Shown here piece by piece: positions 51,825 through 54,736 of a DNA stretch of 64,000 bases (its first letter is position 1; each line of letters starts with the position of its first letter). This DNA is from a virus. The stretch lies in IMG/VR virus record IMGVR_UViG_3300020190_000008, one strand, 5' to 3'. The translations under genes and the position numbers were made by a program. The notes beneath the pieces were generated by a model that saw nothing but the letters and a program-made list of their open reading frames with translations, was not told the DNA's origin and ran no database searches.

Positions 51825-53495
51825 TCAACATTCTTTTCTTAATTCAGCATCATAAAAATCAAAACGGTTGTGTTCTGTTGGTGTAATAAGTAATAGTCCA
51901 GGTTTTATATTACCTTTAATAGTTTCTTGAAAATTATAGGACATTAGGGTTTGTTCATATGGAAAATCAAATCTATTTTTCAAATAACATTTGTAATTTC
52001 CTTCCTTTGACATAAGAATTGGCCAATTAGAAAGATATATTTGACCACTAGCGTATGGTAGACCATTATATGACTTTATATTTTTAAATTCTAAACAAGG
52101 TGCTTCTGGGTCATAACCTTGGACTGGCAAGTTAGGTTTTTTTGGCCAATAGTTTTGTCTAAATTCTTGTGGTACATTATACCAGGACCATTGTGTTTGG
52201 TGTGAACCAAAAAATTCTGTAAAGTTCATTTTGAGAAAATCAAACTCTTCTGTCTTTAATATATTTAATGTTTTTGAAAAAAGGTTTTCCACATATCGGT
52301 TAAATCCATTTTTACAAACACCAGAATTTTTATTCACAAATCCCATATCATCTTCAAAGAAAAAATAATAACCCAAGTCTTCTTCTTTGTTGAAATGTTC
52401 GGAAATAAATTGTCTCCCACCAGTTATACCAATATTATCTTTTTTAATATGTTCAAAACCATATCTTAAACAAAGTTCATTATATTTCGGTGTTGTGTTT
52501 AAATCCGTTGAGTTATTTAATAAAAACTTCTTTGTTCCGTTAATAAAATTTGGGTCATAAAATAACATACTTTTTATTAATGACTCAAACTGTGATGGTG
52601 AATTAAAACTTATAACATATAAACCAACACCATTAGATTTTGTGTTTGATTTTATAATTTTGTTTTTTTTATTTTTAATTACAACTGTATTATTTTTTAC
52701 GTCTTCAAAAAATTTATACACCAAACCATTTGATTCTATTTCACAATAATCAATCATAGATGGATAAAGATAAGTCATTATTGTAAAAATACTTTCTTCG
52801 GTCCCCATTAAATTCTTGTTCAATGTGTCTATTAATAATTGATAATATAAAACATTTAAGTCGGCAATTTTTTCTTTTGTACCACCAAAAAATCCACCCC
52901 TCGATACAAATTCTGTTTTCATTTTCGTATAGTCACACATTTTTTTATAATCAAATCCGTGAACTTCATTTTCAGCATTATAAGGAAATACAATAAACAT
53001 AAATTTATCAAATAAATTTTTCATTTTGTTCAAAACATTGTCACGAGTAAAATACCCAACATTAACCGTGTTAGTTAATCCAGCGTCAATCCAGTAAAGT
53101 TTTTCAGAATTAAAAGGGTCAAGTAATGAAGCGTCATGTAATAAAAACATTTTGGACATCACAAGTGGATTGTAATATTCTAATCTTGCTTGTGTTGATT
53201 CTTTTAACCACCCAGAAATATTATACCAATTGGGATTTGTTCTTATTTTTTGAATTTTATCAAAGTATTCGTTATTTCTAAACCAAGATAAATCCCTATT
53301 AATAAATTCTGTATTATGTGTTTTTCTATATTTGAATACAAATTCTTTTAATTTATTATCACCAAAAACAATTAAGTTACAATCTATTTCTAAAAGTTCT
53401 TTGAATTTTTCTAAATAATATTCAAAAGACCTATTCCATCCTTCATTAAGATTACTTCTACCAATATCCCATAAACCAGTTACAAGTGTTATCAT
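51825..53495 (-). CDS. HtrL/YibB-like domain fused to a GT-A glycosyltransferase-like domain
   Basis: TLVTGLWDIGR, SKMFLLHDA..DPF, YWIDAG, GGFFGG, TEE; second half has N.GI..GRQ and FFEDD. Confidence 0.7.
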   Translation of the reverse strand: MITLVTGLWDIGRSNLNEGWNRSFEYYLEKFKELLEIDCNLIVFGDNKLKEFVFKYRKTHNTEFINRDLSWFRNNEYFDKIQKIRTNPNWYNISGWLKESTQARLEYYNPLVMSKMFLLHDASLLDPFNSEKLYWIDAGLTNTVNVGYFTRDNVLNKMKNLFDKFMFIVFPYNAENEVHGFDYKKMCDYTKMKTEFVSRGGFFGGTKEKIADLNVLYYQLLIDTLNKNLMGTEESIFTIMTYLYPSMIDYCEIESNGLVYKFFEDVKNNTVVIKNKKNKIIKSNTKSNGVGLYVISFNSPSQFESLIKSMLFYDPNFINGTKKFLLNNSTDLNTTPKYNELCLRYGFEHIKKDNIGITGGRQFISEHFNKEEDLGYYFFFEDDMGFVNKNSGVCKNGFNRYVENLFSKTLNILKTEEFDFLKMNFTEFFGSHQTQWSWYNVPQEFRQNYWPKKPNLPVQGYDPEAPCLEFKNIKSYNGLPYASGQIYLSNWPILMSKEGNYKCYLKNRFDFPYEQTLMSYNFQETIKGNIKPGLLLITPTEHNRFDFYDAELRKEC

Positions 53496-54736
53496 AAATT
53501 ACCAACTAACCTATCACACCAACCTTTTGATTTCGAATGTGGCCATACAACCCAATATTTTGGTTTTTCTTTTGCGTTAAATTCCCTCCATATTTTTCCG
53601 TAACCATCGGTATCATTTTTTATTTTTTGTATTTCATCTTCTTGAGCGTCTGAACGATATATTGTTTCATTCCTATCATTATGAAAAGCAACAACTAAAA
53701 AGTCATAATCTTTTTCTGGGATTTTATCTAATGGAACATCAATACAATGTTTGAATATTCTTAAAAAACTCCCTTTCCATTCATCTTCGTTTTTATAATC
53801 ATAAGGGTTTGGTGGATAGTTTCTATCTACTGTATATTGTTGTACAGATCTTTTTTCGAAAAGAATACCAGCATATTTTTCGTAATCACGTATTGTTCTT
53901 TCTTTTCCAAAACCATATTTTAATTTTCCTTCAAATTTTTCACCATCAACACCTAATACTTTTCTATTTTTCGAATGTGAACTTTCATTTTTCTTATACC
54001 ATACACTATCATCATCCCATTGTTTTGTTCTATTCTTTCTTGTATATTCATGCCAAATAACAATTCTATTTGGGTGAAATAAATCATATCCGTGTGTGTA
54101 TGCTCTGACAGCAATTGAAATTTCTTCCCCGTGAAAATAATATTCTGGGTCGTGTTGAACCTCAACTGAAAATTTACCCAATGTAAAACAAAAATGGCCG
54201 GAATAAAATCTTGATGGAATTGGTTTTTTTAGTTCTTTCCATTCTGGTATTATTTCTGGTAAAAAGAAAACAACACCTTCTGGTGTGAATCTATCAAATA
54301 CCATTCTCCAAGGGTCTCTAACTCTACCTTGTGGGTCATTGTCAGGGTCAAAAGACGAAACGTAACCTGTGAGTAATGGTTTTTTATATCCGTCTTTTTG
54401 TAATTCCTTCAACATATAAATTAGACTAACATCCCAATCTTTTTCAAAACGCATATGGGAATCAATCTGTAATGTATAAGTTTCACCACTATATAATTGT
54501 TGTACTTGGTTACGAGCCCAACAGACACCGGTGGATGCTGTATAAATAATATTCAAAATTCTAAATCTATTATCATCTTTATATTCTGATAAATCATCAA
54601 AACTATCTTTCGGATGATATTGTCTTGCAATTCCTAATTTCAAATTTTCTGGATATTTTGCCTTATCCAACATATCTTTAATTGTTGGTATAAGTTGTGG
54701 GTCCCTGTAAGATGCTATTTGCACAAATATTGTCAT
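53492..54736 (-). CDS. GT60-like polypeptide alpha-GlcNAc transferase (Pfam GlcNAc; Gnt1/TcOGNT-like)
   Basis: TIFVQIASYRD, GVCWAR, LQIDSHMRF..WD, FHGEEI..AVRAYTHGYDLFHP, WHEY, G.ERT..DYE. Confidence 0.85.
   Translation of the reverse strand: MTIFVQIASYRDPQLIPTIKDMLDKAKYPENLKLGIARQYHPKDSFDDLSEYKDDNRFRILNIIYTASTGVCWARNQVQQLYSGETYTLQIDSHMRFEKDWDVSLIYMLKELQKDGYKKPLLTGYVSSFDPDNDPQGRVRDPWRMVFDRFTPEGVVFFLPEIIPEWKELKKPIPSRFYSGHFCFTLGKFSVEVQHDPEYYFHGEEISIAVRAYTHGYDLFHPNRIVIWHEYTRKNRTKQWDDDSVWYKKNESSHSKNRKVLGVDGEKFEGKLKYGFGKERTIRDYEKYAGILFEKRSVQQYTVDRNYPPNPYDYKNEDEWKGSFLRIFKHCIDVPLDKIPEKDYDFLVVAFHNDRNETIYRSDAQEDEIQKIKNDTDGYGKIWREFNAKEKPKYWVVWPHSKSKGWCDRLVGNL

Follow-up and report, generated by a model that had tools for sequence, protein, structure and literature searches.

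Does a bacteriophage start mucin-type O-glycans on its own tail proteins? The question is raised by a 64,000-nucleotide (nt) stretch of the IMG/VR virus record IMGVR_UViG_3300020190_000008 (the window), in which a gene for a 414-amino-acid (aa) protein resembling the GT60 family of glycosyltransferases (GTs) accompanies genes for virion-type proteins that carry tracts of threonine and proline. An earlier interpretation, made from the letters of the window without database searches (the sequence-only reading), held that these tracts are glycosylation tags for the GT60 enzyme. Our analysis points to a modified answer. O-glycosylation of virion proteins, started by the GT60 enzyme on Pro/Thr-rich linkers, is the best-supported reading of the locus, and we give it a probability of about one-half. 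The coordinates of all the features discussed are in Table 1.

The GT60-like identity of the enzyme was borne out. Its match to PF11397 (GlcNAc, CAZy GT60) scored 235 bits against a cut-off of 21 and covered profile positions 2 to 45 and 98 to 351; the protein also matched phrog_24687, annotated "glycosyltransferase," with an expectation value (E) of 5e-161. The layout is a GT-A catalytic domain at about residues 1 to 300 followed by a beta-rich C-terminal domain of 90 to 120 aa (about residues 325 to 414). Residues 293 to 414 had no Pfam match up to an E of 10; the small beta-rich domain there is seen in the AlphaFold2 (AF2) model, which was built from a 47-sequence alignment and had a predicted local distance difference test score (pLDDT) of 96.3. 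The best Foldseek matches to the model were nearly all GT27 enzymes, the mucin-type polypeptide N-acetylgalactosamine (GalNAc)-transferases. When the matches were re-aligned with VIA, the first 29 PDB entries were all GT27, with Z scores of 19.3 to 22.3 and root mean square deviations of about 3.5 Å over 263 to 281 residues; other GT-A folds had Z scores of 18.0 or less. D92 and H94, which make up a DxH motif, and E204, E205, and H229 were invariant among 47 GT60 homologues. By analogy with GT27, D92, H94, and H229 would be the metal ligands. On inspection, the N terminus opens directly at the first strand of the fold with no signal peptide, and a cytoplasmic location would fit an enzyme that modifies virion proteins ahead of their assembly.

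The characterized GT60 enzymes have always been found to use polypeptide acceptors (PMC6939170, PMC8724618). Gnt1 is a polypeptide alpha-N-acetylglucosamine (GlcNAc)-transferase acting on a hydroxyproline of Skp1 (PMC6939170), and the Trypanosoma cruzi and Dictyostelium enzymes act on Thr/Ser of mucin-type domains (PMC8724618). The family itself is large: PF11397 gave 4601 clusters at 50% identity (E up to 0.001) and at least 570 loci in IMG/VR. Two observations on other members are recorded here in their own right. Giant proteins of 1300 to 2460 aa in the representative library (P0122 to P0128 and P0134) contain up to four GT60-like stretches each. At another locus (L443, positions 14 to 3117), a divergent GT60 homologue with 41% identity lies in tandem with a second PF11397 gene, beside genes for PqqD and ScmC. 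PqqD-type domains serve in peptide recognition in the pathways for ribosomally synthesized and posttranslationally modified peptides (RiPPs), and this neighborhood hints at peptide glycosylation there.

The GT60 gene has a conserved partner. The start of the next gene, for a 556-aa protein, overlaps the GT60 stop codon. An HtrL_YibB-like domain occupies residues 1 to 277 of this protein and a second GT-A-like domain, for which there was no Pfam match, occupies residues 288 to 545. The AF2 model (pLDDT, 87) has two GT-A-like domains with a disordered linker between them. Foldseek returned the two-domain transferases LH3, Mimivirus R699, K4CP, LARGE1, and PmHS2, but their TM-scores were low, and therefore "tandem GT-A" is the only safe description. 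Neither member of the pair had a relative of solved structure in sequence searches of the PDB. A homologue of the 556-aa protein is downstream of GT60 in 71 of 80 IMG/VR loci, and in the Xanthomonas phages XacN1 and Xoo-sp13 a full-length homologue (∼40% identity) lies less than 5 kb from the GT60 gene. Because the pairing recurs in those genomes, we regard the two proteins as a single module, conserved among jumbo phages that are very distantly related. In XacN1 a carbamoyltransferase gene (ORF333; L001, positions 9412 to 11709) is situated between the two, as is also the case in Xoo-sp13, whereas no gene separates them in the window; it may give a different glycan decoration in that lineage.

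In the window the order of the run is a 102-aa open reading frame (ORF), a 72-aa ORF, GT60, and the 556-aa gene, and there is no strong terminator on the minus strand from 55264 to 51825. The 102-aa ORF has 61% identity over 71 aa to the N terminus of a 283-aa protein in a relative, G003, and in that protein PT repeats of about 100 residues occupy the position of the degenerate Pro/Thr stretch of the 102-aa ORF. The pair is situated between tail and fiber-type genes, with tract-bearing ORFs on both sides of it. No Pfam match was found for the 72- and 102-aa ORFs or for a 763-aa ORF.

The sequence-only reading had also placed the GT60 gene downstream of a motif that precedes structural genes, and this proved correct. 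On the sense strand, TATTTATA occurs 12 to 39 nt upstream of 11 gene starts in the window (among them the sites at 28566, 30633, 36857, 42006, 44122, 51215, 51811, and 55274). All 11 genes are either virion-type, including sheath, neck, and other tail genes, or without an assigned function, and the motif is ahead of no replication gene in the window. At two of the sites there is a palindrome-like TATTTATAAATA. As written, however, TATTTATA corresponds to the T4 late consensus TATAAATA in reverse complement, and it can be called only a putative late promoter.

The tracts were found where the sequence-only reading had put them. In the 1709-aa tail-region protein, Thr runs of 7 and 6 are separated by Q and five Pro and followed by TTSTTT. 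The sheath has two tracts, P plus T7 at 35890 to 35934 and P plus T6 at 35518 to 35574. The 182-aa protein has TSTTTT and then PPSP, placed after a conserved 137-aa core and before a short tail, and the 102-aa ORF has a degenerate PRPTPKNTP. The names "baseplate protein" and "adaptor" that had been given to the 1709-aa and 182-aa ORFs received no support, as neither protein matches any family. Likewise as claimed, the replication enzymes are free of tracts: a scan of the window proteins found none in the ribonucleotide reductase (RNR), helicase, exonuclease, methyltransferase, UvsX-like protein, single-stranded-DNA-binding protein (SSB), or DNA polymerase. The tube homologue (31643 to 32131) also has no tract. 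Four Thr runs of five or more were observed versus an expected 0.074 (2000 within-protein shuffles, maximum of 2), about 50 times above expectation. The Thr codons in the runs are mixed (ACA, ACT, ACC, and ACG), and thus the runs are maintained by selection on the protein and not by DNA slippage.

To follow the tracts we turned to the relatives of this phage. The window comes from an uncultured myophage of the T4-like type with ∼30% GC and has genes for baseplate wedge, hub, tube, sheath, and neck (gp13) proteins and for RNR, a DnaB-like helicase, a UvsX-like protein, SSB, and a family B DNA polymerase. Its IMG/VR relatives scored as 93 to 100% complete are 274 to 322 kb long; thus, it is a jumbo phage. 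The closest cultured match to its sheath, at 32% identity, is that of Microcystis phage Mel-JY01, and megablast of positions 51000 to 58000 against cultured phages gave no match. Identical GT60 proteins are encoded on contigs of JGI, ENA, and Logan metagenome assemblies, which, from the sample identifiers, we take to be of lake origin. GT60 is a core gene of this group of freshwater T4-like jumbo phages of roughly 290 to 320 kb, and no relative lacking it was found inside the group. The aquatic phages called "moraphages," for which Bacteroidota hosts are predicted, have four core orthogroups of glycosyltransferases (PMC12619734); the two groups may overlap.

Among the relatives the tracts change rapidly. 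The two sheath runs flank an inserted domain of about 120 aa, which, judging from general sheath architecture, is presumably on the outer surface of the tail. The insert is replaced by a 40-residue PT linker in G003, and nothing is found there in clade B. Clade A sheaths (68 to 96% identity) have Thr runs at the same site, and clade B sheaths (60 to 65% identity) are without them. The 1709-aa tract lies between conserved blocks that enclose non-Thr sequence in G003 and in a second relative, G023. The homologue of the 182-aa protein is 325 aa long in G003, with two runs of six Thr (T6), PT repeats, and an extra domain, whereas in clade B it is 125 aa long and stops ahead of the tract. Within the Thr-run clade, tracts have been gained or lost at one site. 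This turnover of inserts and tracts in the alignments indicates that the tracts are quickly changing linkers by which accessory modules are attached.

The sequence-only reading implied that GT60 and poly-Thr would be found together in related phages, and this did not hold for all of them. Clade A records have 4 to 18 runs of six Thr codons, but there are none in the eight records (462 kb) of clade B, which keeps a GT60 gene of ∼66% identity, and none in XacN1 or Xoo-sp13. Since all of these phages keep GT60 without Thr homopolymers, the homopolymers are not what retains the enzyme. The zero T6 counts could be taken to speak against any link between tract and enzyme, but we reject this as too narrow, because (PT)n tracts abound in these genomes: when windows rich in Pro/Thr were sought, clade B and the Xanthomonas phages were seen to have (PT)n in place of the Thr runs. 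The PTPTPT codon pattern matched 31 times in XacN1, 23 times each in Xoo-sp13 and G003, and 15 times in G023, with 0 matches to a reversed-pattern control. In 10 further GT60-bearing genomes of the group there were 1 to 52 matches (0 to 1 for the reversed control), while T6 counts in the same genomes were variable and several were no higher than the control. Overall, each of the 14 GT60-bearing genomes or contigs tested had Pro/Thr tracts; the divergent GT60 representatives P0164, P0215, and P0265, whose contigs are too short for tract counts, are outside this figure. None of the five large myophages that lack GT60 had such tracts (Mel-JY01, an uncultured phage of 484 kb, a Flavobacterium phage, Bellamy, and Aeh1; 1.27 Mb altogether), and together they gave 0 PTPTPT and 2 T6 matches. 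When IMG/VR contigs were picked only for (PT)5, 9 of 44 had PF11397 on the same contig, two of them divergent. Judged by these raw sequence counts, the association of GT60 with Pro/Thr is strong but not exclusive, and the class that tracks GT60 appears to be Pro/Thr-rich linkers generally rather than Thr homopolymers.

The genes upstream of the GT60 run (Table 1) form a variable island. Homologues of the sulfation module are missing from both G003 and G023, where the GT8, GT9-like, and Aah/TibC-like genes are absent or have only distant matches; hence, we regard the island as a lineage-specific add-on. The HxGH nucleotidyltransferase, which resembles nicotinamide mononucleotide adenylyltransferase (NMNAT), is, we speculate, a stand-in for ATP sulfurylase; the only NCBIfam match of the sulfotransferase is a weak one to the nodulation protein NoeE. 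The 305-aa protein matched TIGR04414 with an E of 1e-33 and 116.8 bits, below the cut-off of 200, and is thus a relative and not an equivalog; its gene is a second one of protein-glycosylating type in the same island. Elsewhere in the window, the homologue of a 953-aa ORF is 558 aa long in G003 and 1318 aa long in G023, a difference that points to fusion, to splitting, or to the insertion of an element, and a 697-aa protein with a superoxide dismutase domain is present in G003 and absent in G023.

Table 1 Features of the window, with positions counted from its first nucleotide (aa, amino acids; APS, adenosine 5'-phosphosulfate; E, expectation value)
Feature	Positions	Strand	Match or remark
Tail-region protein, 1709 aa	23420-28549	-	Thr/Pro linker at 25265-25402
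Tail sheath, 1220 aa	33163-36825	-	phrog_23, E 3e-54
953-aa ORF	38717-41578	+	Matches both terminase large-subunit and DNA helicase PHROGs
697-aa protein, Fe/Mn superoxide dismutase domain (residues 164-353)	42018-44111	+	Late-type TATTTATA motif upstream
182-aa late-motif gene	51249-51797	-	Directly downstream of GT pair; tract at 51318-51386
Tandem GT-A partner, 556 aa	51825-53495	-	PF09612, E 8e-20
GT60-like glycosyltransferase, 414 aa	53492-54736	-	PF11397, E 2e-69
72-aa small beta-rich ORF	54753-54971	-	G003 homologues beside tract-bearing genes
102-aa ORF	54956-55264	-	Shortened relic of Pro/Thr mucin-like protein
TATTTATA motif, sense strand	55274-55281	-	17 nt ahead of 102-aa ORF; candidate late promoter element
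Sulfation module: DUF2061 protein, NMNAT-like HxGH nucleotidyltransferase, APS kinase, sulfotransferase	55295-57456	-	Pfam and NCBIfam
Transferases: 294-aa GT9-like (weak), 305-aa Aah/TibC-like, GT8	57460-60014	-	PF01501, E 1e-24; TIGR04414
305-aa Aah/TibC-like protein O-heptosyltransferase relative	58361-59278	-	TIGR04414

The scheme that we favor is as follows. The 414-aa protein would be a soluble cytoplasmic GT-A enzyme active late in infection. Its acceptor would be protein, and it would most likely transfer the first N-acetylhexosamine, probably GlcNAc, from a UDP-sugar to Thr, and perhaps to Ser, in exposed Pro/Thr linkers of freshly synthesized virion proteins, namely, at the sheath insert, in the 1709-aa and 182-aa proteins, and in others encoded outside the window. 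The translationally coupled tandem GT-A protein would then lengthen the glycan, and in this lineage only, further decoration may come from the variable island beside the pair (Aah/TibC-like, GT8, and sulfotransferase plus APS kinase). The pure Thr runs would be the acceptor tract of one lineage, with its relatives using (PT)n. There is a precedent in cultured phage. Purified XacN1 particles contain at least two Schiff-positive glycoprotein bands, which the authors ascribed, as a suggestion, to the glycosyltransferases ORF328 and ORF334 (PMC5852040); ORF334 is the GT60 orthologue. Thus, the idea of the tracts as GT60 tags stands in part: the identity of the enzyme, the late-type motif, the Pro/Thr tracts alongside GT60, and the XacN1 glycoproteins favor it, but Thr runs as the dedicated tags make it too narrow.

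Several points weigh against this scheme. The phage and its group are known here from sequence alone, and the XacN1 bands are not tied to the proteins with PT tracts. From the comparisons of relatives, Thr runs are dispensable for GT60 retention. Variable tracts around inserted domains would be expected of glycosylated stalks but equally of plain linkers. The independent lineages that show the co-occurrence are few, namely, one freshwater group, the XacN1 group, and the two divergent contigs, and four of the five near-complete genomes among the (PT)5 contigs are without GT60. Lastly, the HtrL, GT8, and GT9-like families are usually associated with lipopolysaccharide (LPS).

These points can be accommodated in other ways. 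The GT60 and tandem GT-A proteins might glycosylate one defined site on a protein of the virion, of the assembly pathway, or of the host, the tracts being unmodified flexible linkers; this is a serious alternative, if on balance an unlikely one. It would explain why the pair is kept in clades that have tracts of completely different kinds at completely different places and why PT linkers are also found in phages without GT60. The GT60 enzyme studied in most detail, Gnt1, has one protein as its target and modifies one residue of it (PMC6939170), and the conserved 90- to 120-aa C-terminal domain seen in the model could recognize a folded partner. However, tracts abound in 14 of 14 GT60-bearing genomes or contigs and are found in 0 of 5 comparators, the structural neighbors of the enzyme are multisite mucin-type transferases, and within the 17-kb neighborhood no conserved candidate is shared with XacN1 besides the two transferases themselves. 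Gnt1 also suggests a different chemistry, in which GlcNAc would be added to hydroxyproline in poly-Pro stretches, such as the five Pro by the Thr runs, after prolyl hydroxylation. Pro runs do adjoin Thr runs, and the founding GT60 enzyme, Gnt1, has the bifunctional two-domain PgtA after it (PMC6939170), an order echoed by GT60 and its 556-aa partner. But there was no match to PF13640 in G003, G023, XacN1, or Xoo-sp13, nor was there one in four genomes of the group with a completeness of 97% or more, while control genomes did match. Because PF13640 is missing from these eight relatives, a prolyl hydroxylase is not a conserved partner of GT60, and we consider this route highly improbable.

The acceptor might instead be no protein at all. 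The cluster could make or alter a glycan of host LPS, capsule, or another surface polysaccharide, or modify phage DNA, in which case the link to the tracts would be coincidental. HtrL/YibB, GT8, and GT9-like genes are typical of LPS core loci, the weak NoeE match points the same way, and the 556-aa partner is as similar to polysaccharide polymerases as to protein-glycan enzymes (K4CP, PmHS2, and LARGE1 being among its neighbors). DNA-modifying glycosyltransferases are well known from phages (PMC13326640). We nevertheless think a nonprotein target distinctly unlikely: every characterized GT60 member uses a polypeptide, the folds closest to the model are those of peptide transferases and are clearly separated from those of polysaccharide enzymes, the GT60 motif is of the late, structural type unlike the upstream context of replication genes, the GT8 and GT9-like genes are in the variable island and not in the conserved pair, and XacN1 virions do contain glycoproteins. 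An extension of virion O-glycosylation is also conceivable, although we consider it a long shot: after GT60 starts on Thr tracts, the tandem GT-A protein would elongate and the APS kinase/sulfotransferase module would sulfate, giving the tail a proteoglycan-like coat. The role of elongator is suggested because the fold neighbors of the tandem GT-A protein include polymerases of alternating disaccharides. If so, there would be a bacterial virus with a mucin-like or glycosaminoglycan-like surface.

If O-glycosylation of Pro/Thr-rich linkers is correct, then abundant freshwater jumbo phages, and phages of plant pathogens such as XacN1, coat their tails with mucin-type O-glycans. This would suggest how such phages resist proteases, adhere to or avoid surfaces, or evade recognition. 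The comparative outcome also corrects a simpler picture: the acceptor class would be Pro/Thr-rich linkers and not Thr homopolymers. Glycosylation of phage virions is not in itself new, as it was proposed by the XacN1 authors in 2018 and is established for mycobacteriophages, beyond which these results would extend it. To our knowledge, the GT60 family has otherwise been characterized only in protists.

The protist enzymes (T. cruzi OGNT, the Dictyostelium polypeptide alpha-GlcNAc-transferases, and Gnt1 of Dictyostelium and Toxoplasma) share with the phage protein PF11397, the GT-A fold, and the DxH motif. Like Gnt1, the phage protein is soluble, without a signal peptide or membrane anchor, and, as in the Gnt1-PgtA pathway, a two-domain transferase follows it; its candidate acceptors, with Thr runs and Pro-rich sequence, resemble the T. 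cruzi mucin repeats. It differs in being encoded by a bacteriophage, in having the extra beta-rich C-terminal domain of ∼90 to 120 aa, and in that its activity is predicted; the Skp1 pathway differs in its prolyl hydroxylase, for which no counterpart accompanied GT60 in the eight relatives searched with PF13640. The nearest solved structures are the GT27 enzymes (human GalNAc-T1, T2, T4, T10, and T12, Drosophila PGANT9, and Toxoplasma GalNAc-T3), which align over ∼275 residues, the whole catalytic domain of the phage model. Sequence identity is nevertheless only 11 to 14%, the CAZy family is another one, and GT27 enzymes are located in the Golgi, whereas the phage enzyme is predicted to be cytoplasmic. 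Where they have a ricin-type lectin domain, the phage protein has its beta-rich region without a Pfam match.

Among phages, the mycobacteriophages offer one comparison. Freeman et al. (2023) reportedly concluded that glycosyltransferases encoded among the structural genes of these phages act in the cytoplasm and add O-glycans to virion proteins at stretches rich in Ser/Thr, and the GT60 pair is similarly placed among late or structural-type genes. We know of no report that assigns the mycobacteriophage enzymes to GT60. The hosts there are Actinobacteria, and the glycans are on the C-terminal tails of capsid and tail tube subunits, whereas the tracts described here are internal linkers of the sheath, 1709-aa, and 182-aa proteins; the capsid gene is outside the window, and this comparison of tract position covers sheath, tube, and tail proteins. 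XacN1 offers the other comparison. It belongs to a distant lineage with a higher GC content, without Thr homopolymers, and with a carbamoyltransferase where the window phage has the sulfation module. Yet its ORF334 and ORF330 are full-length orthologues of the two conserved genes (47% and ∼41% identity), its large proteins have many (PT)n tracts, and its virions contain Schiff-stained glycoproteins. Because XacN1 is cultured and its glycoprotein bands have already been seen, the hypothesis is directly testable in that phage.

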